The notes: generated by a model not told the origin, from the letters alone. A DNA stretch of 64,000 nucleotides from Patescibacteria group bacterium (GCA_004297205.1 SCUL01000002.1:658893-722892), one strand, 5' to 3'; positions 4,555 to 51,099 are shown, counted from the first letter of the stretch. Made by a program: numbers and translations.

Positions 4555-7446
4555 TTAGAGGACGCGCTTGAGGAGTTGGCCGGTGACCGAGGCCTTGTTT
4601 TTGGCGATCTCCGCCGGCGTCCCGACGGCCACCACTTCGCCGCCGCGCGCCCCGCCCTCCGGACCCATGTCCACGACCCAGTCCGCCGCGCGGATGACTT
4701 CCAGGTTGTGCTCGATGATGAGCACGGTATTGCCTTTGTTGACGAGCTCGTGGAGCACGCCGAGCAACCGCCCGATGTCCTCGAAGTGGAGCCCGGTCGT
4801 CGGTTCGTCCAGGATGTAGAGGGTGCGGCCCGTGGCCCGCCGGCTGAGTTCGGTTGCCAGCTTCACGCGCTGCGCTTCGCCGCCGGAGAGCGTCGTCGCC
4901 GGCTGGCCGAGTCGGATGTAGCCCAGCCCCACTTCGTAGAGCAGTCCCAGCTTGTCGGCGATGGCCGGCTGGTCCGCGAAGAAGTTCCGCGCTTCGGCCA
5001 CGGTCAGCTCCAGGACGTCGGCGATGTTCTTGCCCTTGTAATGCACTTCGAGCGCTTCGGCGTTGTAGCGTTTGCCGTGGCACTCCTTGCACTCCATGTA
5101 GACGTCCGGCAGGAACTGCATGTCGATCTCCACGTAACCTTCCCCGGCGCAGGCCTCGCAGCGGCCGCCACCCTTCACGTTGAAGCTGAATTTTCCAGCG
5201 TCGAATTTGCGGAGCTTCGCTTCCTGCGTTTCCGTGAACAGGTCGCGGATGGCGGTGAAGACGCCGGTGTAGGTGGCCGGGTTCGAGCGCGGCGTGCGTC
5301 CGATCGGCGTCTGGTCGATGGCGATGACCTTGTCGAGGTGCTCGATGCCTTTGATCGACTTGTGCGCGCCGGGAAGCACTTTGGCGCCGGCGTATTCGGC
5401 CGAGAGCGCCTTGGCCAGGATGTCGATGACGAGCGTCGACTTGCCGGAGCCGGAGACGCCGGTCACGCACACCAAGGTGCCGAGCGGAATGCCCACGTCG
5501 ATGTTCTTGAGGTTGAATTCGGTCGCGCCTTTGACGGTCAGCGTCTTGCCCGTGCCTTTGCGGTATTTGGCGGGCGACGGGATGCGCTTTTTGCCGGAGA
5601 GGTAGGCGCCGGTCAGCGATTCCGGGTCCTTGGTGATGGCGGCGGGCGTCCCCTCGGCGATGATTTCGCCGCCGTATTCGCCGGCGCCGGGGCCGACGTC
5701 GATCACCCAGTCCGCGGCCCTGATGATGGCCTCGTCATGTTCGACGACGATCACGGTGTTGCCGCTGTCGCGCAGCTCCTCCATGGTGGCGATGAGTTTT
5801 TCGTTGTCGCGGCCGTGCAGCCCGATCGACGGTTCGTCCAGGATGTAGATGACGCCGGAGAGCTGGGTGCCGAGCTGGGTGGCCAGGCGCACGCGCTGCG
5901 CTTCGCCGCCGGAGAGCGTGTTGGCCGAACGGTCGAGGGTCAGGTAGCCGACGCCGACGTCGATCAGGTGCCCGAGGCGGACGCGGATTTCTTTGAGCAT
6001 CTGCCGGGCGATCCTCATCTGCTCCTCGGTCAAAAGCGAGCCGACCGTTTGGACGTGGCCGTTGCCGTTCTTCTTGCCGCTCGCTTTGCCGTTGCCGTTT
6101 TTTTCCGCGAACAAGGCCACGGCGTCGGACACGGGCAGGGCCACGAGGTCGGCGATCCCGAACGGGCCGATCTTGACGGCCAGCGCTTCCGGACGCAGCC
6201 GCTTGCCGCGGCAGCTCGGGCATTCCAGCACGCGCATGTAGGTCTCGATTTCCTTGCGCAGGTAATCGGAGTCCGTCTCTTTGAACTTCTGTTCAAGGCC
6301 GGGAATGACGCCCTCATAGGTCAGCGTCTTCGCGCCGACCGTGTAGGTCTCGTCACCCGTGCCGTAGAGGATGGTGTTCAGGACCGCCTCGGACAGATCG
6401 GCGACCGGCGTGTCGATGGAAAAGCCGTGGGTCGCCCCGACCGCGCGCACCAGGTCGAGCTGGGCATTCTGGTTGCCGGCAATGCGCGTCCAGGGCTTGA
6501 TGGCGCCCTGGGCGATGGTCAGCCGCGGGTTGGGGATGACGAGCGACGGTTCGACTTTGAGCGTCGAGCCCAGGCCCGTGCATTCCGGGCAGGCGCCGTG
6601 CGGGCTGTTGAAGGAGAACAGGCGCGGTTCGAGCGGCGGCAGGGAAATGCCGCAGCTCCGACAAGCGAACTCTTCGCTCAGGAGCTGATCCTCGCCGCCG
6701 GCCTTGGCCAGGATCAGGAAGCTGTTGCCGAGCTCGAGTCCCTTGACGACCTGTTTTTTGAGCTCCTCGGGCTTGGCCGAGGCGCCGCGCGGCAGACGCG
6801 CCACGAGCACGCTGATGGAGTGCTTCTTTTGCTTGTCGAGCCGGCGGTCCTGCGCCTCTTCGATGGAGATGAAGTCGCCGTCGAGCCGGACGTCCTTGTA
6901 GCCGCCTTTCTCCAGTTCCGCGAGTTCGTGCCGGTGCTCGCCGCGCGCGTCGCGAATGATCGGCGCGAACACGAAGGCCTCCGCACCCTGGGCGGCGGAG
7001 TGGACGATGTCGACGATCTCATCCACCGTCTGGCGGTGCACCGCAGCATTACAGCGCGGGCAGTGCGGCGTGCCGGCACGCGCGAACAGCAGCCGGAGAT
7101 AGTCGTACATTTCGGTGATGGTCCCGACCGTGGAGCGCGGGTTCTGGGAGACGGTGCGCTGGTCGATGGCGATGGTCGGGGAGAGGCCGGTGATCTCGTC
7201 CACGTCCGGACGGCTCTGCAGTTCCAGGAACTGCCGGGCGTAGGAGGACAGCGATTCCATGTAGCGGCGCTGCCCCTCGGCGAAGATGGTGTCGAAGGCC
7301 AGCGACGACTTGCCGGAACCGGACAGTCCCGTGACAACAACAAGCGCGTTCTTCGGGATGTCGACCGAGACGTTTTTCAGGTTGTGCACGCGCGCGCCGC
7401 GGACGGCGATCACCTGCTTCGGGGCCGGAGAGTGCGGGCTCGGCAT
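4555..7446 (-). CDS. uvrA: excinuclease ABC subunit A
   Basis: Two ABC ATPase modules ([18 protein letters not shown]), zinc-finger Cys clusters and LSGGE signatures. Start taken at [25 protein letters not shown], an internal Met of ORF 4555..7548. Confidence 0.95.
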
Positions 7447-7526: not shown

Positions 7527-9038
7527 CTATCGGGCGCCTTCCATGCAATCCCAGAGGTCGCCGGAGATGGAGGCGATGACGGTTGCAACCAGGCTTCCCG
7601 GACTGCCGACCGGTCCGAGCGTCGACAAGGAACTACCCAGGGTTGTTGGTACGGCGTGACAGCCTGAGGGAATATCGCAGGGATTGTCACGACAGCCGTT
7701 CGGGAAGTTGGGAGCCGCTCGTAATGGATTGATCAGTACCGAGCCGCCACCGTACTGGTCTATTATCATTTCCTCCATGCGCAGCGTCGTGCTGCCGTGC
7801 CGCATCATGAGTTGCGCGTCATAATCGCCGCAGCTGCGGACGGCACTGCAATCGATCGTGGCAAGTGCGCAGACATCGAGTATTGCGTCGAATCTGCTGT
7901 CCTGGGCGTAGACGCAGTCCTTGTGCGTGCTCCCGGTGCTGATCGGTCGGAATCGTCGGCATGCGGCGTCATTTTCGGAGAGGCCCCAGTCGCTCAGATT
8001 TTCTTGTGTGATCGTCGGACAGGCCACGCAACCGTAGCCGCTTCTGCCGCGCAGCACGCAGGCTTCGTTTTCGCCGCTGCACACCCCCCACGTGCAGGTG
8101 TTGGTTGCCAGCCGGGTTCCATCCTGTCGCGCCACAGTTCCGTCTTCTCCGCAGCGCCCGGAGGTGGGCGTGACGGTGAACGTCGCACGGTCGAAGTCTT
8201 CGCATTTGTTCGCGGTGAGCGTCTCCACGGTTTGGATTTCCGGCACGATGATGTTGCGCAGCGTCACCAGATCCGGGTTGATCGTCTGGAGGAGCGTGAA
8301 TGAACCGAGCAGGAGCAGCAGGCCGAGAATGGCGTTGGTGATCCGGCCGCGCGCTGCGCCGACGGCCGAGGGGTTGCCGCGGGCCGTCATGTACTGGAAG
8401 CCGCCGACCACGACCATGACCATGGCGAGCGTCACCCCGACGCCGAGTCCGTAGCGGTAGAGGGCCGTGACGTAGGAGGGGATGTCCACGGCCGAGGCGT
8501 AGCTGCCGATGGTCACTTCGAGCGGAACGGGTCCGGCCGCGGGCTCCGGTTCCCCGCCGCTCGTTGTGGGACCGCCGGTCGGCGCCTCGCCCGCGACCGT
8601 GACCGTGACGGAGGCGCTTTCCGTGATCTGCCGGTCGTCCAGAAGCACGCGGCCGCGGAAGAGGTAGGTGCCCGGGGAGGACGGCGCCGGGATGTTGAAG
8701 TCCCAGTTGTCATCCGTCGCATCGCGGAATTCGGGGTTCGGGATCAGGTCCCAGGTCGGCGTTCGGCGGACGACGGAGTCGATGCTGTTGTAGGTCTGGC
8801 GCGTCTCGCCGACGAGGATCACGCTCGGGTCCGTCACCCCCTCGCCGTCGCACGGCGCGGTGAAGCGGAACTTGAAAGTGAAGCGCAGGGTGCTCCCCGG
8901 CGCCACGTCCGTTTTTGGGTTGACGTCGAACCGGACGGCCCCGGGCGTTTCGTCGCAGGGCGCGGCCAGGACCGGCGCCGGGAGGACCGCGGCGAGGACG
9001 AAGATGAGCGCGGCGAGGAGCGCGGGAGCGCGGCGCAT
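7527..9038 (-). CDS. secreted Cys-rich protein with a central TrbC/VirB2-like pilin hydrophobic hairpin
   Basis: Signal peptide [26 protein letters not shown] and an N-terminal beta-rich domain. After a Pro/Gly/Thr linker comes a TrbC/VirB2-like double hydrophobic segment ([27 protein letters not shown]...[21 protein letters not shown]). The C-terminal ~260 aa carry ~22 Cys. The start overlaps the stop of the DsbA-like gene. Confidence 0.55.
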
Positions 9039-10093: not shown

Positions 10094-11917
10094 GTGGCTC
10101 TTTCCGACCGTTTTTCCCGGCTCCGCAGCCAACACCCCGCACCCGCGGGAGCGGGCGCGGATCTCAACAAACGGCTCCTGACCCGGTTGTCGCCCCGCCG
10201 CACCCCCAGCTGGCGGCAGCTGCGGTATTTACCGACGGTGCTCTCCCGCGTTGAGCGGCGCGTTGCCGCGAGTCTTCTCGCGGTCGTCTTTGTCGGACTC
10301 GGCGTCATGGCGGTGCGCGTCTGGCAGCTCCACGTCGTCTCCGTGCCGGCGCGCGGCGGCGAATACATCGAAGGGCTCGTCGGCGCGCCGACCTACATCA
10401 ACCCGCTGTTCGCGAGCGCCAACGAGGTCGATCTCGACCTGACGCGGCTCGTCTACAGCGGGCTCATGCGCACCACGCCCGAAGGCACGGTCGTGCCGGA
10501 CTTGGCGGAGTCCGTGGAAACGAGCGAAGACGGAAAGACCATCACCGCCCAGCTGCGCGCGGGCCTGCGTTTCCATGACGGCAAGACGCTGACCACGGAC
10601 GACATCCTGTTCACGTTCGAGGCCATTCAGAATCCGGCCTACAAGAGTCCGTACGCGGGGAGCTTCAAGGGAGTGACGATCGCCGCTCCCGACGAACACA
10701 CCGTCACCTTCACGCTGTCCGAGCCCTACGCGCCGTTTTTGACGGCGCTGACCGTCGGCATCCTGCCTGCGCACCTGTGGCGCGACGTGCCGCCGCAGAG
10801 CGCCAACTTGGCCGAGTTCAACCTCAAACCGATTGGCAGCGGCCCCTACAAGTTCAAGGCGTTTTCCCGCGACCGCGTCGGCACCATCCGCAGCTACACC
10901 TTCGAACGGTTTTCCGACAACGGCGGCTCCGGTCCCTTCATCAACCGCGTGGCCTTCCGGTTCTTCCCGGATTTCGATTCGGCGGTCGAGGCCTACCGCA
11001 GCCGCCAGATCGACGGTCTGGGGTTTGCGCCCACCAGCTTGCGCGACCGGCTGCGCGGCCGCCACGACGCCAACGAATACCCGCTGGCCCTGCCGCAGTA
11101 CACGGCGCTGTTTTTCAACCAGAAGCGCGCCGAGGTCTTGAAAGACCCGCAGGTCCGCGAGGCGCTGACGGTGGCGCTCGACCGCGAACGCATCATCGCC
11201 GACGCGCTGCAGGGCGCCGGGGAGCTCGTCGACGGTCCGGTCTTTCCCGGCTTCGCCGGCGTGACCTCGACGCCGCCGCGCGCCGCATTCGACCCGGACA
11301 AGGCGGCGCAGCTCCTCGAGAAGGCCGGCTGGGCCCTGCCCGAGGGCGGCGGTCCGCGCGTGAAATCCACCAAGGACAGCCGCGGCCGCGTCACCGCGAC
11401 GACCACCCTCACCCTCACCCTCACGACCGCGCAGCGCGACGAGACGAGCATGGCCGCCAAAGCCGTCGCCGACACCTGGCGCGCGCTCGGCATCGACGTG
11501 AAGGTGGACGAAGTGCCGGCCGCACGCATGCAGCGCGACGTGCTGCGTCCCCACGCCTACGACGTGCTTCTCTACGGCCAGATCCTCGGCCGCGATCCGG
11601 ATCCGCTGCCGTTCTGGCACAGCGGGCACGCCGTCGAGGGCGGCTTCAACCTGGCGCTGTATGCGAACCGCAACGCCGATGCGCTGCTCGAAGAAGCCCG
11701 CAAGGAACAGGACGCCGAGAAGCGCGGCCTGCTGTACACGCGGTTCGCGAGCCTCGTCGTGTCCGAGCACGCTGCCGCGTTCCTGTACCGGCCGGTCTAT
11801 CCGTACTTCGTGACGACCGCCGTGAAGGGGGTCCGGGCCGACGAGATCGCCGTGCCGGCAGACCGTTTTTCCGGGGTTGCCGATTGGTACATCAAGACGC
11901 GCAAGGGGTGGCGGTAG
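10094..11917 (+). CDS. ABC transporter substrate-binding protein, family 5 (oligopeptide/nickel type)
   Basis: 607 aa with an N-terminal TM anchor and family-5 SBP-like core. GTG start. Confidence 0.7.
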   Translation: MALSDRFSRLRSQHPAPAGAGADLNKRLLTRLSPRRTPSWRQLRYLPTVLSRVERRVAASLLAVVFVGLGVMAVRVWQLHVVSVPARGGEYIEGLVGAPTYINPLFASANEVDLDLTRLVYSGLMRTTPEGTVVPDLAESVETSEDGKTITAQLRAGLRFHDGKTLTTDDILFTFEAIQNPAYKSPYAGSFKGVTIAAPDEHTVTFTLSEPYAPFLTALTVGILPAHLWRDVPPQSANLAEFNLKPIGSGPYKFKAFSRDRVGTIRSYTFERFSDNGGSGPFINRVAFRFFPDFDSAVEAYRSRQIDGLGFAPTSLRDRLRGRHDANEYPLALPQYTALFFNQKRAEVLKDPQVREALTVALDRERIIADALQGAGELVDGPVFPGFAGVTSTPPRAAFDPDKAAQLLEKAGWALPEGGGPRVKSTKDSRGRVTATTTLTLTLTTAQRDETSMAAKAVADTWRALGIDVKVDEVPAARMQRDVLRPHAYDVLLYGQILGRDPDPLPFWHSGHAVEGGFNLALYANRNADALLEEARKEQDAEKRGLLYTRFASLVVSEHAAAFLYRPVYPYFVTTAVKGVRADEIAVPADRFSGVADWYIKTRKGWR

Positions 11918-12239: not shown

Positions 12240-12438
12240 ACTCACGATGTTTCTTGCCCCCCGCCCTGGCGGGGCGGCCCGTCCCGCTCAGCGGGACCCG
12301 TTCCTTCAGAACCAGTAGTCAGAGGATGCTTTCCGAGTTTTTGGTTTTTCGGAAACCCTCCGTTGATTATTCGTGCGCCGGACACGCCGCAGGGCCTGCG
12401 TATCGCCCGCTTCCGTAGCCGCCGCAACCACACAACAC

Positions 12439-14268
12439 ATGTCACCACAGAACACTCCGACGTCGTCCCAGGCGCCGTCCCGCTCAGCGGGACCGCGCCG
12501 CGACGACCGTCGCCATTTCCGCGGCCGCGGGCCGCGGGGACCGCGTCCCCCGGGCGCATCCGTGCCGCAGGGAGCTCCGCACATCAAGGAGTTCACCGGC
12601 GCTGACGGCAAGAAACTCAAGATCATCGTGCTCGGCGGCCTCGAAGAGGTCGGCCGGAATTGCACGTTGGTCGAATACGAAAACGACATCATCTTCATCG
12701 ACATGGGGCTGCAGTTCCCGGAAGAGGACCAGCCCGGGGTGGACTACATCATCCCCAACATGTCCTACGTCCGCGGCAAAGAAAAGAACATCCGCGGCGT
12801 GATCATCACCCACGGCCATTACGACCACATCGGGGCCATCCCGCACGTCGTGCCGCGCATCGGCAATCCGCCGGTCTTCGGGCTGCCGATGACCGCGGGC
12901 ATCATCAAGAAGCGCCAGGAAGATTTTGAAGGCGTGAAGATCAACATCCGCGAGGTGAAGATCGACGACCGGCTCGTGCTCGGCAACTTCCAGGTCGAGT
13001 TCGTGCACATCAACCACTCCATTCCCGACGCCGTGGCCGTCGTCGTCCATACGCCGGTCGGTACCATCATCCATACCGGCGACTGGAAATTCGACTACAC
13101 GCCGATCGGCGCACCGCCGGCCGACTTCATCAAACTGGCTTCGCTGGGCGCCCGCGGCGTGCTCGCGCTCATGGGCGACTCCACGAACGCCGCCCATGCC
13201 GGTCACCAGATTTCGGAGCGCGAAATCGCCAACACGCTGCGGTTGATCCTGGAGAAGGCGCAGGGCCGCGTCATTGTCGGCACCTTCGCCTCGCTTTTGG
13301 GCCGCGTCCGCCAGATCTTCGACATCGCCCAGGACCTGGGCAAGAAGGTCGCGCTCGACGGCTACTCCATGAAGACCAACGTGGAGATCGCCCGCGTGCT
13401 CAAGTACATCAACATCAAGCCGGGTACGCTCATCGACATCGCCCAGATCAACGACTACCCCAAGGACAAGGTCGTGGTAGTCTGCACCGGCGCCCAGGGC
13501 GAAGAGCGGGCCTCGCTCATGCGCATCGCCAACGATGAGCACCGCTCGGTCCGCATTCAGCCGGCGGACACGGTCATCTTTTCGTCCTCCGTCATTCCGG
13601 GGAACGAGCGCACCGTGCAGCGGCTCAAGGACACGCTCTACCGCAAGGGCGCGGACGTCATCCATTACCAGATGATGGACGTGCACGCCGGCGGCCACGC
13701 CATGAAGGAAGACATCAAGTTGATGCTCCTTCTCCTGAAGCCGAAGTACTACATCCCCATCGAGGGCAACCACTTCCTGCTGCGTGAAAACGCCAAGGTG
13801 GCCGCCATGATGGGCATCCCCAAGGAGAACATCTTCGTCGCCGACAACGGCCAGGTCATGGAATTCGTGGCCGGCGGCAAGGGGCGCCTCTCCGACGTCA
13901 AAGTGATGGCCGACTACGTCTTCGTGGACGGCCTCGGGGTGGGCGACATCTCGGAAGTCGTGCTGCGCGACCGCCAGGCGCTGGCCGAAGACGGCATGGT
14001 CGTCGTCGTCGCACCGGTCGCCAAGCGCACCGGCGGGCTCGCCGGTAATCTCGAGATCGTCTCGCACGGCTTCGTGCAGGTGGAACATAACCAGGCGCTG
14101 ATCGACGAGCTGAAGAAACACGTCGAGAAGATCCTGATCGACAAAGACACCAAGAGCGAAGCCGACCCCGACGACATCAAGCGCAAGATCCGCGACGACG
14201 TCGGCGCCTTCCTTTTTACGAAGACGCAGCGTCGGCCGATGATCCTGCCGGTGATCATCGAGGTGTAA
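12439..14268 (+). CDS. rnj: ribonuclease J (metallo-beta-lactamase/beta-CASP RNase)
   Basis: KLKIIVLGGLEEVGRNCTLVEY N-terminal pattern, HGHYDHIG metal motif and full beta-CASP/C-terminal domain. Start uncertain: ATG 12439 or GTG 12373. Both give an Arg/Pro-rich low-complexity N-terminal extension. Confidence 0.9.
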   Translation: MSPQNTPTSSQAPSRSAGPRRDDRRHFRGRGPRGPRPPGASVPQGAPHIKEFTGADGKKLKIIVLGGLEEVGRNCTLVEYENDIIFIDMGLQFPEEDQPGVDYIIPNMSYVRGKEKNIRGVIITHGHYDHIGAIPHVVPRIGNPPVFGLPMTAGIIKKRQEDFEGVKINIREVKIDDRLVLGNFQVEFVHINHSIPDAVAVVVHTPVGTIIHTGDWKFDYTPIGAPPADFIKLASLGARGVLALMGDSTNAAHAGHQISEREIANTLRLILEKAQGRVIVGTFASLLGRVRQIFDIAQDLGKKVALDGYSMKTNVEIARVLKYINIKPGTLIDIAQINDYPKDKVVVVCTGAQGEERASLMRIANDEHRSVRIQPADTVIFSSSVIPGNERTVQRLKDTLYRKGADVIHYQMMDVHAGGHAMKEDIKLMLLLLKPKYYIPIEGNHFLLRENAKVAAMMGIPKENIFVADNGQVMEFVAGGKGRLSDVKVMADYVFVDGLGVGDISEVVLRDRQALAEDGMVVVVAPVAKRTGGLAGNLEIVSHGFVQVEHNQALIDELKKHVEKILIDKDTKSEADPDDIKRKIRDDVGAFLFTKTQRRPMILPVIIEV

Positions 14269-14360: not shown

Positions 14361-14748
14361 GACGCCCAGGAAACCAGACGACCGCGGCGATTCCTTCGGG
14401 AATCGTTGAGGAAAGTCCGAACACCGATGCCGTCGCAAGGCGGCATGAGTGGCAGTCGCGAAATGCGACCGGGAGCAAGGGATCGATCGTTCTCTCGGGT
14501 TACGAGAGAGTGGCTGATCCTCCAAGCCCAGGGACAGTGCAACAGAAAAGACACCGCCGATGGCCCCGCAAGGGGATCAGGTAAGGTTGAAATCGTGGGG
14601 TAAGAGCCCACGCGGGACATGCCTCGTGAGGGGCGCCGTGGAAAACACCTGCCCGGTGCAAGAGCAAGTTTGGTCGCTCGCATAGAGAGATGGTCGTCAC
14701 TCCGCTTCGGCGGGGGACAGAATTCGGCTTACCGGTTTGCTGGGTGTC
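14361..14748 (+). ncRNA. rnpB: RNase P RNA, bacterial type A
   Basis: P4 strands GAGGAAAGTCCG (14408-14419) and ACAGAATTCGGCTTAC (14717-14732). A long run matches the E. coli M1 RNA core: CCAGGGACAGTGCAACAGAAAAGACACCGCCGATGGCCCCGCAAGGGGATCAGGTAAGGTTGAAATCGTGGGGTAAGAGCCCAC. A ~15-bp P1 helix pairs the 5' and 3' ends. All ORFs across it are artefacts. Confidence 0.9.
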
Positions 14749-25498: not shown

Positions 25499-25951
25499 AT
25501 GGCTGTGGATATGCCGAGCAAGAAAAGATACGTCACGGAAGAGTACTTGGAGACCCGCTTGGACAAGCTCGTCCAGGAGGTCGCGGTTGTATTTCAATCG
25601 AGTTTTTCCGAACAACAGGTCCAGATCAATGAGTTGCGCGAGATGGTCAGGCAGGGTTTTGGGATACTTGATGGTTTTGTGGGAAAGATGAATCGTCTAC
25701 ATACGCTTCGTGAGGTCCATCGCTGCCTCCGATCCGTGAGTCGCTTCGCCGCCACATGCCTTCGGGATGTTCCACCCGTCGGTCACGCTGCGGTTCGTCG
25801 CTCCTCGTCCGATATCACCAGTCAGTCTGATGTTCTCGGAAGAGGAGAGGATCTTGGAAGACCCTCTGGAACGGCCGTCGCCCGTTCCTGCCTGTGCGCT
25901 ACGTCTCGCGCACGAGGTCGATTGCGGCCTGCAGATCGGACATATTCCTGA
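25499..25951 (+). CDS. hypothetical small protein (only the N-terminal ~78 aa unique part is convincing)
   Basis: The N-terminus MAVDMPSKKRYVTEEYLETRLDKLVQEV... looks like a real amphipathic protein. From ~25738 the frame reads through repeat element R1, so the C-terminal ~70 aa may not be genuine. Confidence 0.3.
   Translation: MAVDMPSKKRYVTEEYLETRLDKLVQEVAVVFQSSFSEQQVQINELREMVRQGFGILDGFVGKMNRLHTLREVHRCLRSVSRFAATCLRDVPPVGHAAVRRSSSDITSQSDVLGRGEDLGRPSGTAVARSCLCATSRARGRLRPADRTYS
25738..25892 (-). repeat. intergenic repeat element R1 (long form, tail A)
   Basis: Begins GAGTCGCTTCGCC...GGGATGTTCCACCCGTCGGTCA and ends with the hairpin GGAACGGCCGTCGCCCGTTCCTGCC. The core is diverged. Confidence 0.7.
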
Positions 25952-26111
25952 TCCGGTCCACCAGGCCCACCTTCCTGAGCACCGCGCTGATTTCCCTGCC
26001 ACCCGTCGTCAGGCCGGCCTCGGCCAGCAGCGCCTCGGCCTTCTCCTTCGCCTCGAGCAGGGAGCATCGCTGCGTCTCATGCAGCACCCCCATGACGACC
26101 ATTCTGTTCAT
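25899..26111 (-). CDS. hypothetical small protein (70 aa)
   Basis: MNRMVVMGVLHETQRCSLLEAKEKAEALL..., preceded by GGAGA-7 nt-ATG immediately after repeat R2. Confidence 0.4.
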   Translation of the reverse strand: MNRMVVMGVLHETQRCSLLEAKEKAEALLAEAGLTTGGREISAVLRKVGLVDRIRNMSDLQAAIDLVRET

Positions 26112-26123
26112 GTCTTCGTCTCC

Positions 26124-26293
26124 AGTCGCTTCGCCGCTGCGCGCCTTCGGGATATTCCACCCGTCGATCATGCCGCGTTCTCGTTCCTCGTCTCACGCCA
26201 CGAGTACCTGCTCATGCCTTGAGAAGAGGAGAGGGCGCTTGCGCGTACCGCATCGCCCCCGAGACTTTGACCGCTGTCTCCTGCGGGCCGTGT
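26124..26293 (-). repeat. intergenic repeat element R2 (long form, tail B)
   Basis: AGTCGCTTCGCC...GGGATATTCCACCCGTCGATCA...CCTCGTCTCACGCCACGAG...CTCATGCCTTGAGAAGAGGAGAGG, plus hairpin tail GAGGGCG...CGCCCCC. It sits between the stop of the 172-aa gene and the RBS of the 70-aa gene. Confidence 0.75.
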
Positions 26294-26812
26294 TCACGGC
26301 GTTTCGAGCATGTCTTCCCACGTTCGATCATCGCCCCATTCTGCCTGAACGAGGCGTGCGCCGGCTGGTGTCCAGACACCGCACTGCACCGACATCCAAC
26401 TGACTCTCGGGAGATTCACCGGATCGATGCGAGTGAAGAGCTCGGCCGCCTTCCTTTCGTGGAAGTACCCGATGAGACGGCTGTCGCTCCGATTGTCGTA
26501 ACCGCCATCCGGAAGCTTGAACGGAAGGCAGCCCTCGGGGTGTGTCACACCGTAGACCAGGTGGCCGTCCGAAGCGTCGACGCGGAAACGGACGCGGTAG
26601 ACCCTGCCGATGCTGCTGACGGCTTCCGCGGAAGCCGGTTGGATCTCGGGAGCTTCTCCCTTGAAGAACACGACGATCCAGCCGCAGACGGTGAGAGGTA
26701 CGACTTGGACGCGCAGCTCGCGAGCACGCTTGCGCAGGACGTTCGCCTGGCGATTGAGCTCCTCGACCTGCGACTCCACGCTCTTCAGTTCGCTGACCAA
26801 TAGATGAACCAT
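26294..26812 (-). CDS. hypothetical membrane protein (N-terminal coiled coil, one TM segment, C-terminal domain)
   Basis: 172 aa, SD GGGAGAAAAAATG, MVHLLVSELKSVESQVEELNRQANVLRKRARELR, then TM segment VVPLTVCGWIVVFF. Confidence 0.5.
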   Translation of the reverse strand: MVHLLVSELKSVESQVEELNRQANVLRKRARELRVQVVPLTVCGWIVVFFKGEAPEIQPASAEAVSSIGRVYRVRFRVDASDGHLVYGVTHPEGCLPFKLPDGGYDNRSDSRLIGYFHERKAAELFTRIDPVNLPRVSWMSVQCGVWTPAGARLVQAEWGDDRTWEDMLETP

Positions 26813-26838
26813 TTTTTCTCCCGTTCTCCTTTTTGTTT

Positions 26839-26929
26839 CCTCGTCTCACCGCACGAGCGTCGCTCATGCCTTGAGAAGAGAAGGAGTCGCGTGACTCCTT
26901 GGAACGGCCGTCGCCCGTTCCTGCCTTGA
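26839..26929 (-). repeat. intergenic repeat element R3 (short form, tail A)
   Basis: Core CCTCGTCTCACCGCACGAGCGTCGCTCATGCCTTGAGAAGAGAAGGAG plus hairpins AAGGAGTC-acgc-GACTCCTT and GGAACGGCCGTCGCCCGTTCC. The last hairpin abuts the stop of the lipoprotein gene. Confidence 0.7.
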
Positions 26930-27322
26930 TCAGGGAAACGTCGCCACCCATCCGTTCGGAAGGACGAACTCCTCTGCCGGACCGACGTTCCCGGTGGCCA
27001 CCTCGCCGACGAAATTGCCGTCGATGATCTGGATGTTCCGGAGGTGCGCCTCACGAGCGGGAACCACTCGGCAGCGGCTCCGGACGTGGAAGCCATCGGC
27101 GGCTTCGCAGTGGCCACGCTCGTTGGCGGCATCCGGACCGAACCATGTGCCGCGACCGTCGCGCTCGCAGGTCGCCTCGCAGAGCACGTCGGCAGGCTGC
27201 GGACAGCCCGCCTCGATGATGGCGACGGCTTCGGCCAGGTTGTCGTAGCAGGCATCGCCCTCCGACGGAGGCGACTGCGTGCAGCCGACCAGCATCAGAG
27301 CAGAGAAGATGATTGCACGCAT
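26930..27322 (-). CDS. lipoprotein (lipobox LVGC)
   Basis: MRAIIFSALMLVGC-TQSPP signal/lipobox, 130 aa with 8 Cys. Internal Met of ORF 26930..27586. Confidence 0.6.
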   Translation of the reverse strand: MRAIIFSALMLVGCTQSPPSEGDACYDNLAEAVAIIEAGCPQPADVLCEATCERDGRGTWFGPDAANERGHCEAADGFHVRSRCRVVPAREAHLRNIQIIDGNFVGEVATGNVGPAEEFVLPNGWVATFP

Positions 27323-27336
27323 CGCACACCCCATTG

Positions 27337-27507
27337 AGTCGCTTCGCCGTCGCATGTCTCCGGGATATTCCACCCGTTGATCACGTTTCGGTTCATCGCT
27401 CCTCGTCTCACGCCACGAGCGTCGCTCATGCCTTGAGAAGAGGAGAGGGCGCGTGCGCGAATCGCCGCACCCTCGAGACTTTTTTCGTCGGCTGTCTCCC
27501 GCCGGAA
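27337..27507 (-). repeat. intergenic repeat element R4 (long form, tail B)
   Basis: The best-conserved copy: GAGTCGCTTCGCCGTCGCATGTCTCCGGGATATTCCACCCGTTGATCACG...CGCTCCTCGTCTCACGCCACGAGCGTCGCTCATGCCTTGAGAAGAGGAGAGG, plus tail GAGGGCGCG...CGCACCCTC ending at the stop of the upstream gene. Confidence 0.75.
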
Positions 27508-28095
27508 CTACTTCCGCCACCTCGCGATCTCCTTGAACGTGGCCTCGTCCACCTCTAGACCGGGGGATGATCCGAGGGTCCACCACCGCCGCGGCGGTGC
27601 GGCGACGTCCTTCATCGCCGCCTCGTACTCGTCGACCTCGATGAGGTCGAACAGGACCGACGCGTCGAGACCGATCGCATCATCGATCTCAAGAAGACGC
27701 GCGGCCAGGCCGCTGTCCGCCGTTTCCATGAGCGCGCGCTCGAGTGAGCAGCGCGCCGCGAAGCACGAGCGGACGGTGTGGAACTCGTCAACACCGCACG
27801 GCAACTCGCCGTTCGCGATGAGGGGGAGGATTCCCGCCATTTCCTCGAACTCCTCAGCGCATGCGAGCGCGTAGCGGAGTCCGTCCTCCTCTCTTTTCGC
27901 CGTCATCTGTGCGGCGGCGTCGCACATGTTGCGGAGATCGGCCACCTCCCTTCGCACCTCTTCGGCGGTGTCAGGCTCGCACCCGCACACCCCCTCGTCG
28001 GTGCGGCATGGACAACCCATGCCGGAGTGCCCGTATGGGCGCTCCGAGAAGTTCTTTACCCTCTCTGACCCACAGAAAGCACAAGCCATGTGCAT
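27508..28095 (-). CDS. hypothetical Cys-rich (zinc-ribbon-like) acidic protein
   Basis: Internal Met of ORF 27508..28302 (MHMACAFCGSERVKNF...GMGCPCRTDEGVCGC...). SD AAGGAG precedes the start. The upstream part of the long ORF is repeat-encoded. Confidence 0.5.
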   Translation of the reverse strand: MHMACAFCGSERVKNFSERPYGHSGMGCPCRTDEGVCGCEPDTAEEVRREVADLRNMCDAAAQMTAKREEDGLRYALACAEEFEEMAGILPLIANGELPCGVDEFHTVRSCFAARCSLERALMETADSGLAARLLEIDDAIGLDASVLFDLIEVDEYEAAMKDVAAPPRRWWTLGSSPGLEVDEATFKEIARWRK

Positions 28096-28108
28096 CTCCT
28101 TTTTTCTT

Positions 28109-28262
28109 GAGTCGCTTCGCCACAACGCGCCTCCGGGATATTTCACCCATCGGTCACATTGTAGCTCATCGCTCCTCGTCTCACACCACGAGCGGATTCG
28201 TGAGTTGAGATGAAGAAGAGGATCTTGGAAGACCCTCTGGAACGGCCGTCGCCCGTTCCTGC
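28109..28262 (-). repeat. intergenic repeat element R5 (long form, tail A)
   Basis: GAGTCGCTTCGCCACAACGCGCCTCCGGGATATTTCACCCATCGGTCA...CCTCGTCTCACACCACGAG...GAAGAGGATCTTGGAAGACCCTCTGGAACGGCCGTCGCCCGTTCCTGCC. Confidence 0.75.
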
Positions 28263-28268
28263 CGATTG

Positions 28269-28447
28269 CTACTCGTTCAATGCCATCTCCTCGATCAACC
28301 ACCGTTCGTCGGGGTCCTCGAGGTCCATTTCGTACTTCTCCGCGAGTTCCAACACTCGCTGCGCGAACAGCTGCTGCGCCTTTGTTTCATCGAACCCGGC
28401 GGCGATGAAGTCACCGAGGGTGAAGGCTGCCGTCTCGTACACTGCCA
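28269..28447 (-). CDS. hypothetical small acidic protein (~59 aa)
   Basis: MAVYETAAFTLGDFIAAGFDETKAQQLFAQRVLELAEKYEMDLEDPDERW..., SD GAGGAGG directly after R6. Below the ORF-track length cutoff; coordinates are approximate. Confidence 0.35.
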
Positions 28448-28453
28448 TGGTTT

Positions 28454-28544
28454 CCTCCTCGTCTCACGCCACGAGCGTTGCTCATGGTTTGAGATGAAAA
28501 GAGGATCTTGGAAGATCCCCTGGAACGGCCGATGCCCGTTCCTG
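28454..28544 (-). repeat. intergenic repeat element R6 (short form, tail A)
   Basis: CCTCCTCGTCTCACGCCACGAGCGTTGCTCATGGTTTGAGATGAAAAGAGGATCTTGGAAGATCC...GGAACGGCCGATGCCCGTTCCTGC. Its second hairpin GGATCTT-gg-AAGATCC shows compensatory changes relative to R1/R5. Confidence 0.7.
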
Positions 28545-28597
28545 CTTGCCCCGAGCGAAGTCGAGGGGCCTGTCCCGCGCGTCTCGCGGGACTGTAG

Positions 28598-28689
28598 TGG
28601 CACCGTCGGGAGTCGAACCCACTGATTGCCCCGACACTTGGTGTTGCCAAGCTGGAGAATCCCCTCCATATATATCGTCAGGCAGTGCC
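28598..28689 (-). other. tRNA-like fragment / pseudo-tRNA (possible integration-site remnant)
   Basis: On the minus strand: GGCACTG...GTGGG-TTCGACT-CCCGA-CGGTGCC-A. There is a 7-bp acceptor-like pairing including one G.U and a canonical T-arm/T-loop. No D-arm or anticodon arm could be folded. It is followed by an 8-bp GC hairpin GTCCCGCG/CGCGGGAC. Confidence 0.25.
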
Positions 28690-28718
28690 TTGTGCGCCCT
28701 TTGTCGAGGCGCTGTTCA

Positions 28719-28841
28719 CTACTTTTTGTCGCTGTCCTCCTGAACCGCGATCCAGCCGCGCTTGATGGCGTAACGGACCAGCAACGCGCCGGCAGAACAG
28801 ATCATGACCCAGATGAACGCAACGATGATGATCTTCAACAT
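28719..28841 (-). CDS. hypothetical 40-aa single-TM protein
   Basis: MLKIIIVAFIWVMICSAGALLVRYAIKRGWIAVQEDSDKK, SD GAGGAGG-4 nt-ATG directly after R7. Confidence 0.3.
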   Translation of the reverse strand: MLKIIIVAFIWVMICSAGALLVRYAIKRGWIAVQEDSDKK

Positions 28842-28845
28842 GCGA

Positions 28846-28930
28846 CCTCCTCGTCTGACCGCACCACCGGAGTGATGCCTTCGGAAGAGGAGAGAGCGCA
28901 TGCGCGATCCGCATCGCTCTCTGGACCCGT
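28846..28930 (-). repeat. intergenic repeat element R7 (short, diverged core, tail B-like hairpin)
   Basis: CCTCCTCGTCTGACCGCACCACCGGAGTGATGCCTTCGGAAGAGGAGAGAGCG-catgcgcgatccgcat-CGCTCTC. The hairpin is perfectly complementary and shows compensatory changes versus R2/R4. Confidence 0.6.
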
Positions 28931-28965
28931 TTTGTTTCTCCGGTGGGGTCCGAACCGGTTGTGCC

Positions 28966-29238
28966 TCAGCGCGAGGCGTAGATGATGGCCTCGCCATCGG
29001 CCACGATGTGCGTGGTTCCGACGGTGTACTCCTCGTGGGAGCGCAGCGTCTCGACCACCACGGGCACACGACCGACGATCTCGATCGTGTCGAGGACGAT
29101 CACGTGGCTTTCGGGCCGCGTGGTCTCCCGCGCCTCGTGGCGCTCTTCCCAGGCGAGAACCGCCGGGGACGTCATCGTGAGCGACGCGAACGCCGAGAGG
29201 CAGAGAACCGCGAACCCGAGCACCATGAGCTTCGTCAT
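28966..29238 (-). CDS. hypothetical secreted protein (~90 aa, signal peptide)
   Basis: Internal Met MTKLMVLGFAVLCLSAFASLTMTSPAVLA of ORF 28966..29529. The upstream part of that ORF is low-complexity. Confidence 0.45.
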   Translation of the reverse strand: MTKLMVLGFAVLCLSAFASLTMTSPAVLAWEERHEARETTRPESHVIVLDTIEIVGRVPVVVETLRSHEEYTVGTTHIVADGEAIIYASR

Positions 29239-29480
29239 CTTCGTTTTTCCGTTTTCCCGGTAGAGCTCTCCGCAGTGGCGTTTCCGCGTACTGAGTGCTC
29301 TCCGCCACACGACCCGATCTCTCACCCTCAGGTCTTGTGGCGGTGGGTTTTCAAGGTCCGCTTCGGCCGGCACCTGTGACGACAAGCTGCACATGTGCCG
29401 TCCGGTTCCTCCTTTTCCATCCTTAAAGAACGCATGACTATAGCATGCCCAAGCGGTTTTGTCAAGCCTGCGCCTGGCAT

Positions 29481-44937: not shown

Positions 44938-45011
44938 GGGCCGCTAGCTTAGTGGCAGAGCACCCGGTTTGCATCCGGGAGATGAGGGTTCGATTCCCTC
45001 GCGGTCCACCA
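44938..45011 (+). tRNA. tRNA-Ala (anticodon TGC), CCA encoded
   Basis: Acceptor GGGCCGC/GCGGTCC with the G3.U70 Ala identity pair, anticodon loop TTTGCAT, T-arm GAGGG-TTCGATT-CCCTC, 3' ACCA. Confidence 0.85.
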
Positions 45012-46010: not shown

Positions 46011-47480
46011 TCAGGTCCTGTCAACGGGGACAGCGACCGCGGGTGCGTCTACAGTCTGTCCGCGGAGCTCGCGCCACGCGGGCCGGACGATGATCTCCGG
46101 ACTGCCGCCGACGATCTCGATGCACTCGACGACGCCGTCGACGGCCCGGCGTCGCAGCACGGGGTCGGGCGAAGCGAGCCACGCCTCGCAGTTCTCCGCG
46201 ATCTCGAGCAGCGCCTGTGTCCCGCGGGTCTCCTCCCCGTCGACCTTGACCGCGCGCAGCCTGCTCTCGCAGGCGCGCATCGCCTGATGGATGTCCGTGA
46301 ACTCCTTCTCGTAGGCGCCGATCGAGACAAGCTCGTTCGCCATCCGCATGACGAGCTGCCGGTACTGGACGTCGAGGCCGCGGCGACCGGCGCGAAGCGC
46401 GCGTACCTGCTCGGCCTGACGCGCAGTCTCCCGACGCATCTCCTCGCGGAGCTGCCGCCGCAGGATTGGTGCAGCACGTTCGGCCAGCCGTAGATCGCGC
46501 ACCTGCCGCACCACCTCCGTCTCGAGCGGCTCCGCTGCGGTGAGGTACCGGCAGGTGCTCCCGGCCCAGTGGCAGCGGTAGTAGGAGTAGACGCGGCCGG
46601 AGGGCTTCACGTGCCGCTCGGGGATCAGGTTCTTCCCGCAGCTCGGGCACCTCACCTTCCCGGAGAGCAGATGCTCGAGCCGTATGCGGGTGCGCCCGCC
46701 CGAGTCCTTCTGACGGAAGACCTCCTGGACGCGGGCGAACACCTCGCGCGAGACGAGCGCCGGGTGCGTTCCGTCGTGCTCGATGCCGCGCACCCGCATG
46801 ATGCCGGCGTAGAACGGGTTCTTGAGCAGGCGGCACAGGCCCGTCGCCGTGACCCGCTTACCGGTCCTCGAGACCAGGCCCTTCCGGTGGAGCTCGTCGG
46901 AGAGGGTGGTCGTCGGTACGGTGCCGGTCGCGAAGCGCTCGAAGGCTTCGCGCATCATCGGCGAGCGAGCCGGGTCGATGAGGACCCGGCCGCGTTCCTT
47001 GAGGTAGCCGACGGGTACCGCCCGAGCCCACCGGCCGCGGCGCAACGACTCGTCGATGCCTTTGCGGATCTCGAGACCGAGATTCGCGCTGTAGAACTCG
47101 GCGTGTGCAGCCATGATGTGTTCGAGGAACTCGCCCATCGGGTTGTCATCGAAACCCTCGACGAGGGAGACGATGCGCACCCCGACGCGGCGGAGCTTTC
47201 CCTTAAGAGTGAGGTAGCCGTAGATGTTCCGGGCGAGCCGATCGACGCGATGGACGAGCAGGACGTCGACCGTGCGGTCCGAGCTCGCGTGCCGCAGCAG
47301 CGACAACAATCCGGTACGTCCACGAAGCGTCTTGCCTGAGCCGACGTCCTGATACTCGCCGGCGATGGGCCAGCGTTCATCGGTAGCCCGGCGCCTGAGC
47401 GCGTGGAGCTGGGCGGGGATCGAGAGATCGCGCTCGGCCTGCTCACCGGTCGAGACGCGGGCGTAGAGAAGGACTGACAT
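46011..47480 (-). CDS. large serine recombinase (resolvase/invertase catalytic domain + recombinase domain + zinc ribbon)
   Basis: YARVSTGEQ catalytic-Ser motif, recombinase domain and CPSCG...C zinc ribbon. Start taken at MSVLLYARVSTGEQ; the ORF track's 47504 start is an upstream GTG. Confidence 0.85.
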   Translation of the reverse strand: MSVLLYARVSTGEQAERDLSIPAQLHALRRRATDERWPIAGEYQDVGSGKTLRGRTGLLSLLRHASSDRTVDVLLVHRVDRLARNIYGYLTLKGKLRRVGVRIVSLVEGFDDNPMGEFLEHIMAAHAEFYSANLGLEIRKGIDESLRRGRWARAVPVGYLKERGRVLIDPARSPMMREAFERFATGTVPTTTLSDELHRKGLVSRTGKRVTATGLCRLLKNPFYAGIMRVRGIEHDGTHPALVSREVFARVQEVFRQKDSGGRTRIRLEHLLSGKVRCPSCGKNLIPERHVKPSGRVYSYYRCHWAGSTCRYLTAAEPLETEVVRQVRDLRLAERAAPILRRQLREEMRRETARQAEQVRALRAGRRGLDVQYRQLVMRMANELVSIGAYEKEFTDIHQAMRACESRLRAVKVDGEETRGTQALLEIAENCEAWLASPDPVLRRRAVDGVVECIEIVGGSPEIIVRPAWRELRGQTVDAPAVAVPVDRT

Positions 47481-47481
47481 A

Positions 47482-47510
47482 CTGAGGTGGTTACGGGTTA
47501 CCACCTCAGC
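47482..47510. promoter_or_regulatory. GC-rich hairpin CTGAGGTGG-ttacgggttac-CCACCTCAG abutting the recombinase start codon
   Basis: 9-10 bp stem immediately 5' of the recombinase ATG. Candidate operator or att-associated site. Confidence 0.35.
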
Positions 47511-48207: not shown

Positions 48208-48561
48208 ATGCAAACCCTTGGTGAGAAGATCAAGGTTCTCCGGGTGGCCAAGGGAATGACGCAGGAGGATCTGGCCGGGAAGCTTGGCTACTCGAAGTCT
48301 TTCATTTCCTATATTGAGAGTGGCGAGCGGAATCTGAGTGACGTCGATACCGATCGTATCGCGAAATGCCTAGAAGTGAGCGCGGAAGACCTTCGTTCGA
48401 AAGGTGCCGTCGTTTCGTTTCAGTTTCGTTCATCGAAGGTCGGCACAGACGAGGAGCACCGCAAGGTTGCTCAGAAGTTCACAGATTACGCGAGGAAACT
48501 AATCGAGGATTCGGATTCCAACCAGGAAGCCAGCGTATGGAAGGGCAGTCAGAAAAGATAA
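48208..48561 (+). CDS. XRE-family helix-turn-helix transcriptional regulator
   Basis: KIKVLRVAKGMTQEDLAGKLGYSKSFISYIESGERNLS HTH. Confidence 0.8.
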   Translation: MQTLGEKIKVLRVAKGMTQEDLAGKLGYSKSFISYIESGERNLSDVDTDRIAKCLEVSAEDLRSKGAVVSFQFRSSKVGTDEEHRKVAQKFTDYARKLIEDSDSNQEASVWKGSQKR

Positions 48562-50187: not shown

Positions 50188-51099
50188 TTGGCGGCTTACT
50201 TGAATACCATGCATTGGATTTCACTCTCCTTGCTTGGCCCGCTCTTTTGGGCCTCATCTAATTTCGTCGATAAGTACATCCTCAGTAAACACTCGAAGGG
50301 GATCTTCGACTTCCTTTTCTTTTCAACAATCACGAGTTGGTTCTTGTTTGTCCTTCTGTTTATTTTTGTCGGGATGCCGGAACTGACGGTGTACTCATGG
50401 ATACCTATTTTGACGGGAGTCATCCTCATCTACTCGTACGGCTTCTACGGAAAGGCGCTCGAACAGGGGGACACATCGGCGCTCGTCATTCTGTTCAAGT
50501 TGATTCCAGTTATCACGCTCATCCTGGCGTTCGTCTTTTTAGGTCAAACCGTATCTTCTCGTGAGCTGCTCGGTTTTTTGATCGTTCTTGCGGGAGCAAC
50601 GATCGTTTCGTTTGAAAAAAGCAGAGGCGTCCTTATCAAAGGTTTTGGCATGATACTCATTGCCATATTCATGTGGTCCGTGATGACCCTTTTCATCGAT
50701 TACGGACTCACAAAGATGTCTTTCTGGGATTACTTTTTGCTCGATACTTTGGGTTCAGCGATAGCCGGACTGACGTTTTTTATTGTTCCCGCGATGCGGA
50801 GACAAATCATTGATGGGTTGAAAACTGCCACCACCGGTAAATATGTTTGGTTTTCCGGAAACAATCTTTTGGATTTCTTTGGCCAAATGAGCGTTAAGAA
50901 GGCTCTTGCGATTGCTCCCTCTGCCGGCCTGGTGACGGTCGTCACGCAAGTACAATCTTTCTATGCGATAGTGATTGGACTTGTGCTGACGCTCCTCATC
51001 CCCAAGATCATAAAGGAAGACATCTCCAGGTTTACTTTAGTGAAAAGATTCGTTGGCGCTTTGATCATGTTCTCGGGAGTCTATATTTTGTTGGCGTAG
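50188..51099 (+). CDS. EamA/DMT-superfamily transporter
   Basis: 303 aa, ~10 TM helices in two halves. Start possibly at MHWISLS (50209). Confidence 0.7.
   Translation: MAAYLNTMHWISLSLLGPLFWASSNFVDKYILSKHSKGIFDFLFFSTITSWFLFVLLFIFVGMPELTVYSWIPILTGVILIYSYGFYGKALEQGDTSALVILFKLIPVITLILAFVFLGQTVSSRELLGFLIVLAGATIVSFEKSRGVLIKGFGMILIAIFMWSVMTLFIDYGLTKMSFWDYFLLDTLGSAIAGLTFFIVPAMRRQIIDGLKTATTGKYVWFSGNNLLDFFGQMSVKKALAIAPSAGLVTVVTQVQSFYAIVIGLVLTLLIPKIIKEDISRFTLVKRFVGALIMFSGVYILLA

Follow-up and report, generated by a model that had tools for sequence, protein, structure and literature searches.

What holds a row of small, mutually unrelated genes together in a Patescibacteria genome was examined in a stretch of 64,000 nucleotides (nt) from a Patescibacteria group bacterium (GCA_004297205.1, SCUL01000002.1:658893-722892), a small-genome groundwater bacterium. 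This whole stretch is referred to as the window. Between 25.7 and 28.9 kb, the minus-strand genes G0 to G6 are separated by seven copies (R1 to R7) of an intergenic repeat, which an earlier note had described as one element of 90-170 bp marking either an integron-like cassette array or a family of structured RNAs. The question was whether these copies are recombination sites, regulatory leaders, selfish repeats or signals for the expression of the genes between which they lie. They are best explained as RNA modules that lie between cistrons, govern processing, stability and translation, and in addition provide homology for cassette exchange; we give this reading a probability of roughly 0.55.

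Overlapping repeat families at 25.7-28.9 kb were recovered by repeat search of the window. Counts of 5, 4 and 4 in the 64 kb were obtained for three core motifs; the expectation from shuffles was 0.00-0.02. A covariance model was built on the core shared by the copies, a hairpin termed HP3. Exactly seven matches with 53-72 bits were obtained, all on the minus strand between 25796 and 28896, and the runner-up scored only 11.6 bits. The matches were R1 (25796-25851, 58.3 bits), R2 (26179-26235, 63.9 bits), R3 (26832-26887, 65.6 bits), R4 (27394-27449, 71.9 bits), R5 (28167-28221, 53.1 bits), R6 (28450-28505, 57.8 bits) and R7 (28842-28896, 68.7 bits). The claim of seven alignable copies in one orientation, confined to the array, was thus borne out. 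The claim of a single element of 90-170 bp was not: each copy is a mosaic in which a common core of about 55 nt is preceded by either of two 5' modules and, in some copies, followed by a 3' module.

Six copies are placed between a stop codon and the next Shine-Dalgarno (SD) sequence or start codon. The exact fit to gene boundaries that had been proposed is therefore correct for these six copies, with two departures from the simple scheme. Downstream of R1 only a remnant of seven codons follows (MDLTKRM*, 25697-25720, minus strand), and between the G1 stop codon and R6 a tRNA-like element and two extra hairpins intervene. The GC content of the array (0.59-0.66) is lower than that of the flanks (about 0.65-0.70), as had been stated, but the drop is modest only.

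In every gap between array genes, RNA structures of the sense strand follow one another in the order stop codon, pseudoknot or hairpin HP1, hairpin HP2, HP3, optional hairpin A (HP4, also module A; in relatives also another one, D), SD and start codon. The 5' module is an H-type pseudoknot in R2, R4 and R7 and HP1 (GGAACGG..CCGUUCC) in R1, R3, R5 and R6. The pseudoknot begins 3-10 nt past the stop codon, and its third loop is A-rich. HP3 abuts HP2 directly without a linker and forms a rod of about 22 bp-equivalents. Its outer stem of 12 bp (CUCCUCUUCNNA / UNNGACGAGGAG; strands in the alignment of copies, CUCCUCUUC/GACGAGGAG) is followed by a 3x3 internal loop, an inner stem of 6-7 bp with a conserved U·G pair, and a variable loop. 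Within HP3, an SD-like GAGGAG is paired with an anti-SD-like CUCCUC. GAGGAGG of HP3 is the sole SD in R6 and R7, where it lies 3-5 nt ahead of the AUG. Hairpin A is present in R1, R2, R4 and R5 and has the loop GGGUGGAAUAUCCC and the tail GGCGAAGCGACU.

From the promoter-proximal end, the gaps (all minus strand) are built as follows. R7 (28843..28965) consists of a pseudoknot (28923-28958), HP2 (28891-28922) and HP3 (28846-28890), with GAGGAGG 3 nt before the G1 start. R6 (28449..28546) comprises HP1 (28522-28542), HP2 (28500-28521) and HP3 (28454-28500), with GAGGAGG 5 nt before the G2 start. R5 (28090..28268) contains HP1 and HP2 (28212-28264), HP3 (28172-28218) and A/HP4 (28110-28165), then AAGGAG and the G3 start. 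The longest gap, R4 (27323..27507), is made up of a pseudoknot (27475-27504), HP2 (27445-27474), HP3 (27390-27445) and A/HP4 (27337-27391). R3 (26813..26929) has HP1 and HP2 (26881-26921), HP3 (26837-26880) and an A-rich leader with its own SD. R2 (26112..26293) combines a pseudoknot (26261-26286), HP2 (26231-26260), HP3 (26184-26231) and A/HP4 (26124-26177), and R1 (25721..25898) HP1 and HP2 (25844-25894), HP3 (25801-25847), A/HP4 (25739-25793) and the SD GGAGG.

Related arrays were found in L006 (identical to L134, the Hainich H41 metagenome-assembled genome, MAG), L118, L130 (GCA_964648865.1), L138, L139 and L140. They share one chromosomal locus, between ruvA/ribonucleotide reductase and FemAB/tRNA-Arg, and keep the same gap grammar with different genes (covariance-model scores of 48-70 bits). 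The cassette order is G0, a Cys-rich gene with a transmembrane (TM) peptide, the tRNA-like element and a gene of 59 amino acids (aa) in H41; 62 aa, G0, 128 aa, 93 aa, Cys-rich plus TM, 68 aa and 193 aa in L130; G0, 123 aa and further genes in L139; and, after other genes, 155 aa, 210 aa and a G5 homologue in L140. Cassette content thus differs among related genomes with the elements at the boundaries, which is what the check on cassette variation proposed in the earlier note had looked for. An apparent strain difference between L130 and L131 (93 aa versus 76 aa) was discarded as a gene-calling effect only, the DNA being 99.97% identical.

L141 is a more distant genome (GC 50-58%) with elements at a different locus. 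Its HP3 copies are weaker (20-26 bits) and are accompanied by a pseudoknot, HP2 and a near-identical module A. HP3 and A stand directly upstream of the sole detectable homologue of G3 (about 40% amino-acid identity). The L141 elements lie in an island of unknown genes and two toxin-antitoxin pairs on the opposite strand. One pair consists of a ParE-like toxin and its partner, the other of HicA and HicB (6202-6647 and 8178-8649); both are located between HP3 copies and are reminiscent of the toxin-antitoxin cassettes of chromosomal integrons.

RNA folding was assessed on an HP3 alignment of 19 copies from six loci. Paired cells amounted to 93.3%, compared with 37-54% when the 3' partners were slid, and two-sided changes were seen in 12/18 pairs. 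Neither the percentage paired nor the covariation score was matched by any of 500 shuffles, and the same fold was returned by unguided RNAalifold. Pseudoknots were checked copy by copy with a script and were present in all 12 C2-type copies. Six complementary versions of pseudoknot stem 2 were found (GGACCC/GGGUCC, GGACC/GGUCC, GGAUCC/GGAUCC, AGUUCC/GGGACU, GCAACGG/CCGUUGC and GAGAC/GUCUC), with a seventh in L141 (CCGACU(C)/(G)AGUCGG); the chance rate of such a pseudoknot in shuffled sequences was 14%. For module A, 88.4% of cells were paired versus 21-46% after sliding, with 6 compensated pairs. The suggestion that the copies are a structured family was supported by folding on the sense strand and by covariation in HP3, the pseudoknot and module A.

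The strand that folds is indicated by wobble pairs. Of the HP3 copies, 18/19 retain the U·G pair (alignment columns 23-36), and HP3 has 33 G·U cells versus 7 C·A cells able to pair on the opposite strand. Module A is likewise rich in G·U cells. As G·U pairs occur on the sense strand, the sense strand is taken as the folding strand. The sense fold was more stable in 20/26 gaps (mean 6.8 kcal/mol); for R4 it reached -80.4 kcal/mol (z -3.2) versus -65.7 kcal/mol (z -1.25) for the antisense fold.

Covariation bears on the explanation of the copies as selfish small mobile repeats of the MITE (miniature inverted-repeat transposable element), REP/BIME (repetitive extragenic palindrome/bacterial interspersed mosaic element) or BOX type, tolerated between genes. 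Mosaic make-up and stable hairpins do recall BOX and BIME (PMC3049150), and identical modules are found beside unrelated genes in different genomes. Selection on the fold is implied by the covariation, and the copies have a single orientation and fit exactly between stop codon and SD. They were confined to the array in the window and in the 20-kb loci of the relatives, and the whole representative MAG contained one real pattern match. Terminal inverted repeats were not found: the longest terminal inverted match was 3-9 nt and inconsistent between copies, and no inverted repeat bounded an element, so that MITEs were rejected. REP, BIME and BOX elements were rejected on the confinement of the copies to the array within these sequences. 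The view that the copies are not insertion-sequence remnants was upheld in the same way, as the open reading frames (ORFs) are also not pieces of one gene. An origin as selfish repeats is most improbable.

Wider scans returned few members. An exact-pattern scan of one genome per species gave 8 matches, of which 1 was real (L006). Among the matches listed for a metagenome scan with at least 120 loci, only L054 (the L006 locus) and L118 were real. The family was not found in viral contigs in two scans. Other loci at 23-30 bits were rejected as picked by the search pattern itself, and an identical match of L101, L120 and L123 was rejected because it lies within a coding region on the opposite strand (L120 examined). 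The family looks rare, with six loci at one chromosomal position and one more distant island.

Module A was also considered as a short leader peptide or upstream ORF (consensus MNRxxINGWNIPxT..GEA) whose translation would be coupled to that of the downstream gene. An AUG follows GAGGAG in most copies. Window R4 and L141 have 13/20 residues in common with four synonymous third-position changes, and in L141 the G3 homologue begins with an AUG that overlaps the stop codon of this ORF. The frame itself is poorly kept: it is broken or shifted, with a TGA in R5, no AUG in R1 and a shift of +1 nt in L141 at 6738, and about 3/10 copies have it in frame with the gene, as expected by chance. Only 2 nt separate the SD and the AUG, and the variable codons coincide with covarying stem positions. 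No protein with three 5-residue words of the motif query was present among 5.8 billion clusters. A coding role of module A is accordingly very unlikely.

Transcription signals were searched between 25300 and 29700. One promoter-like site was found, ahead of G0, and none in R1-R7. This site is of the sigma-70 type (29437..29465, minus strand; TTGACA-17-TATAGT with extended TG, 11/12 positions matched), and TTGACA..TATAGT/TATGCT is likewise located upstream of the G0 homologues in L130, L138 and L139. No gap between array genes contained a convincing U-tract terminator. The lone terminator-like call inside an element was HP2 of R6, with the tail TTTCATCTCA, which is not a U-tract. In L006, L130 and L140, a strong intrinsic terminator closes the array past the last HP3-like hairpin. 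Because of the single promoter and the terminal terminators in the relatives, the array is read as one operon; judged from these signals, a polycistronic transcript would start at the promoter (29465-29437) and run from G0 to G6.

Such a transcript would be punctuated by RNA modules. The pseudoknot or HP1, plus HP2, would stabilise the 3' end of the upstream cistron and insulate it, and HP3, as long as it is neither opened nor cleaved, would mask the ribosome-binding region downstream. With a size of about two helical turns and an internal loop, HP3 may be a processing signal of the RNase III type, similar to those of phage T7. Being modules, these structures would serve as portable, self-contained expression signals for each promoterless ORF. 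The genes for RNase J (12373-14268, plus strand) and RNase P RNA (14366-14747, plus strand) adjoin each other in the window and are relevant to any model of mRNA processing in this operon.

Alternatively, HP3, with or without module A, might be a sensory leader (riboswitch, RNA thermometer or protein operator) that switches translation of all cassettes together, the repeats then existing for co-regulation rather than processing. All of the SD-like GAGGAG is held in a stem of 12 + 7 bp, the loop and tail of module A are conserved in sequence across distant genomes while the reading frame is not, and the pseudoknot topology is that of small ligand-binding pseudoknots. A second, unpaired SD is present in most copies, however, and some HP3 hairpins have no gene after them. 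Unlike a ligand pocket, the internal and terminal loops of HP3 lack conservation, and no element matched Rfam 15 at the gathering threshold or even at E <= 10. Control by a common sensor is consequently regarded as unlikely, and RNA modules with a function in processing and expression are preferred.

The second part of this reading, cassette exchange, rests on the position at which homology between genomes breaks. The pseudoknot or HP1 and HP2 travel with the upstream gene, HP3 and the leader with the downstream gene, and the break falls at the HP2|HP3 junction. Nucleotide identities were determined for the coding DNA, for the segment from the stop codon to ..CCUCUCCUCUUC and for the next 45 nt. 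They were 72%, 93% and 57% for the window versus L140 after G5; 85%, 93% and 55% for H41 versus L118 after the 59-aa gene; and 71%, 93% and 76% for the window versus L139 after G0. In the reverse case, window R1 and element b of L140 are unlike upstream and alike from the HP3 5' strand through A, the SD and the first seven codons. These codons are the remnant MDLTKRM* (25697..25720, minus strand) of a cassette gene that is intact in L140 (210 aa, MELTKRMYG...). In L140 this cassette is upstream of G5, whereas the window remnant is downstream of G5 and G6; therefore the order changes and not only the content. Since the same short conserved block CUCUCCUCUUC is found at every junction, crossover would take place in this block when cassettes are gained, lost or reordered, with homologous or short-homology recombination as the simplest mechanism.

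The remnant has been fused by a deletion in the window to the middle of a convergent plus-strand gene (25499..). The same deletion took the 3' end of the convergent gene and the operon terminator, which is why the window is without the latter. The convergent gene (25499-25951) is truncated after ..GKMNRL, and its ORF now runs antisense through R1; it is intact in the relatives (116 aa in L006, 110 aa in L130 and 98 aa in L140). A possible further trace was noted in the HP3 outer stem of R7, which has CCGA on the 5' side and UCAG on the 3' side and hence a C·A mismatch. This is the product expected of a crossover inside HP3 between CCGA..UCGG (L006 b) and CUGA..UCAG (L118 a).

A fixed break could instead mean that DNA recombination takes place at the elements, as the sites of a new cassette platform similar to integrons but without an adjacent integrase. 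A recombinase acting in trans would cut at HP2|HP3 (core CTCTCCTCTTC) and move [HP3-leader-ORF-PK/HP1-HP2] units (PK, pseudoknot), with the hairpins as recognition structures on folded single-stranded or cruciform DNA. Much of the layout agrees with this: promoterless, unrelated ORFs in one orientation behind one promoter as in an integron array, a homology break that is constant in three comparisons, a cassette order that differs between the window and L140, and site-proximal modules that are better conserved than coding DNA. The HP3 outer stem, unpaired spacer, inner stem and variable loop are similar to the R box, unpaired central spacer (UCS), L box and variable terminal structure (VTS) of attC (PMC5027507). 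The opposite-strand toxin-antitoxin modules between HP3 copies in L141 and a large serine recombinase 17 kb away would fit as well.

Several defining features of integrons were nevertheless not found. The attC site has an R box with AAC/GTT triplets, with the inverse core RYYYAAC and the core GTTRRRY at the base of the hairpin, and it folds on the bottom strand (PMC5027507). Neither core is present in any of the seven elements on either strand, and their G·T(U) pairs and folding bias are on the top (sense) strand, so that the elements were rejected as attC sites and the integron-like character proposed earlier fails as family membership. In L130 and L134, the 10 kb on each side of the array contained no recombinase and no integrase of the IntI type (precomputed Pfam). 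No tyrosine integrase (Phage_integrase domain) was detected among the 30 non-cassette ORFs of the window that were scanned. HP3 and A stay with the gene as a 5' leader across distant genomes, as for an expression signal, and GAGGAG of HP3 is the working SD in R6 and R7. Homologous recombination with selection for intact hairpins accounts for the junction equally well. A cassette platform of this kind is thus unlikely, and that HP2|HP3 is a true site-specific recombination site of a previously unknown system without adjacent integrase appears rather improbable. If true, cassettes would bring their own RNA expression modules and the sites would fold on the sense strand, a mechanism different from attC recombination in integrons.

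The large serine recombinase (46011-47504, minus strand) has Resolvase, Recombinase and Zn_ribbon_recom domains and is the only recombinase found in the window. It is located about 1 kb from tRNA-Ala (44938-45011) and adjoins a block with a GC content of 0.48-0.54 (47.7-51 kb), in which an HTH_3 regulator (48208-48561) and an EamA transporter (50188-51099) are encoded. Together with the low-GC block it is probably an integrated element.

Several observations weigh against the preferred reading as RNA modules with homologous exchange. Cleavage, stability effects and translational control are inferred roles of the modules. A second SD is located downstream of HP3 in R1-R5, so that GAGGAG of HP3 is not the SD in use there; with a second SD in 5/7 window copies, sequestering of the SD is not a universal role. 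HP3-like hairpins end the arrays of L006, L130 and L140 with no gene after them. The antisense strand folds better in 3/4 gaps of L141, and because the copies are related to one another, the shuffle statistics overstate their independence. On the side of exchange, three of the mapped breakpoints share one block of 11-13 nt, which is short for recombination of the RecA type, and a fourth breakpoint (G3 versus L141) is later, at the HP3 3' strand. The pseudoknot and HP2 modules are about 93% conserved, compared with 71-85% for adjacent coding DNA, and identical HP2 variants stand beside unrelated genes (window R3 and L130 e3). This looks more like sequence-specific recognition or recent exchange than purely structural constraint.

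The genes punctuated by the elements lie on the minus strand and are mutually unrelated, as the earlier note had claimed (best pairwise BLASTP E = 0.23). Their proteins had no match in Pfam, PHROGs, NCBIfam or PADLOC. GC content at third codon positions (GC3) was 0.74-0.90 for G0-G2 and G4-G6, compared with 0.79-0.87 for core genes; with core-like GC3, these six measured genes look like real resident genes and not noise. The first cistron, G0 (28966..29238, 90 aa, GC3 0.90), has an N-terminal segment resembling a signal peptide and is kept in all relatives (5 homologues, 51-100% identity). Its 5' untranslated region contains a leader hairpin, module D (29302..29343, minus strand; CCGCC..GACCUGAGGGUGAGAGAUCGGGUC..GGCGG, also written CCGCC..GGACCUGAGGGUGAGAGAUCGGGUC..GGCGG), a weak match of the HP3 model (11.6 bits). 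Module D also precedes the Cys-rich cassette gene in L130 (about 11290-11330), L138 (about 1300-1345) and L139 (about 205-260 and 1205-1247).

G1 (28719..28841) encodes a 40-aa transmembrane peptide, and genes for TM peptides occupy the corresponding position in L006 and L130. G2 (28269..28448) encodes an acidic protein of 59 aa without family match. G3 (27508..28089, 193 aa) has a Cys-rich N-terminus and a single distant homologue among 1.8 billion cluster representatives. G4 (26930..27322) codes for a putative lipoprotein of 130 aa with the lipobox MRAIIFSALMLVGC. G5 (26294..26812, 172 aa, with an N-terminal helix) is annotated at NCBI as 'hypothetical protein EPO33_04800 [Patescibacteria group bacterium]' and has a homologue in L140 (64% identity). 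G6 (25899..26111) encodes a protein of 70 aa without family match. AlphaFold models from 2-sequence alignments had a mean predicted confidence (pLDDT) of 51 for G3 and 44 for G5, both too low to support a fold search. Co-regulation of a secretome would be plausible only for members with a signal peptide, lipobox or TM segment.

After G1, a tRNA-like element (28598..28689, minus strand) was recognised by its consensus fold. An acceptor stem of 7 bp is combined with a T-arm-like GGGUUCGACUCCC, a branched domain replaces the D and anticodon arms, and two hairpins (28572-28592 and 28548-28569) follow. The element was not called by ARAGORN or Rfam. It is kept in L006 (about 4383-4480) and L118 (about 910-1008), and the window, L006 and L118 part directly past its 3' end. 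An origin as an att-site copy of the nearby tRNA-Arg was rejected, since only a T-loop of 13 nt is common, and this with tRNA-Leu. The element could be a tRNA remnant or, speculatively, a processing signal of the RNase P/Z type, which would be in keeping with the role proposed for the other modules.

Patescibacteria (candidate phyla radiation, CPR) have tiny genomes with many small proteins of unknown function, and the regulation and exchange of their accessory genes are little understood. On the preferred reading, a compact, reusable plug would string unrelated promoterless genes into one operon. This plug would consist of a stop-proximal pseudoknot or hairpin, a second hairpin and an SD-occluding hairpin, and would also mark the places of gene exchange between genomes. 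The locus provides a new, covariation-supported family of structured RNAs that includes a pseudoknot, a model for intercistronic processing in an uncultivated lineage that can be tested, and a candidate mechanism for cassette exchange without integron chemistry. No description of such elements in Patescibacteria was found in the literature.

Known systems resemble the locus in different respects. In SD-sequestering leaders and RNA thermometers, the SD is paired with an anti-SD-like strand, and preQ1-I is a small H-type pseudoknot aptamer with an A-rich third loop. Both features recur here, the pairing of the working SD in R6 and R7, but the pseudoknot follows a stop codon instead of lying in a 5' leader, HP3 has unconserved loops and Rfam gives no match. 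Enterobacterial REP and BIME are mosaic intergenic repeats of modules, dispersed genome-wide in both orientations, and REP are accompanied by a RAYT transposase. Pneumococcal BOX elements, like the elements of the array, combine modules variously, form stable RNA hairpins and are co-transcribed with flanking genes (PMC3049150). These families are dispersed over the genome in both orientations, unlike the present copies, which are restricted to one operon (or to one island in L141), in one orientation and in register with gene boundaries.

Early mRNA of phage T7 is cut by RNase III at intercistronic signals, which leaves stabilising 3' hairpins (PMC3867540). These signals are conserved hairpins between cistrons, of about two helical turns with an internal loop, and cleavage can free the next ribosome-binding site (PMC3867540). 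HP3 has this geometry (12 bp, a 3x3 loop and 6-7 bp) and lies between cistrons of one inferred transcript. It differs in that there is no sequence similarity, that the pseudoknot or HP1 and HP2 flank it, and that it marks the boundaries of DNA cassettes.

The PeSL (promoter early stem-loop) repeats of T4-type phages are likewise composite repeats between the stop and SD of small ORFan genes in hyperplastic regions; they have stem-loops with G·T pairs, and genes are shuffled by recombination between the motifs (PMC2839356). Every PeSL repeat carries a sigma-70 promoter (PMC2839356). The array elements belong to a chromosomal bacterial locus, have much larger covarying structures and contain no promoter, and they were rejected as PeSL because the only promoter-like site is upstream of G0. 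With integron arrays, including those that lack an integrase, the locus shares unrelated ORFs without promoters of their own, all in one orientation behind a single promoter; structured repeats at each boundary; content and order that vary among relatives; and a two-part hairpin with an unpaired centre. Besides its 3x3 internal loop and variable loop, HP3 shows a conserved mismatch (alignment columns 12/47); conserved extrahelical bases of the kind in attC were not seen in it. The breakpoint here lies between two hairpins, with HP3 staying with the downstream gene, and the element also supplies an SD. Each comparison therefore fails on defining features, for attC on the AAC/GTT core, the strand bias and the integrase, and for PeSL on the promoter in every copy. 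By its proposed function the locus is closest to signals for processing and translation between cistrons; in layout it comes nearest to an integron array or to the PeSL regions of T4-type phages.

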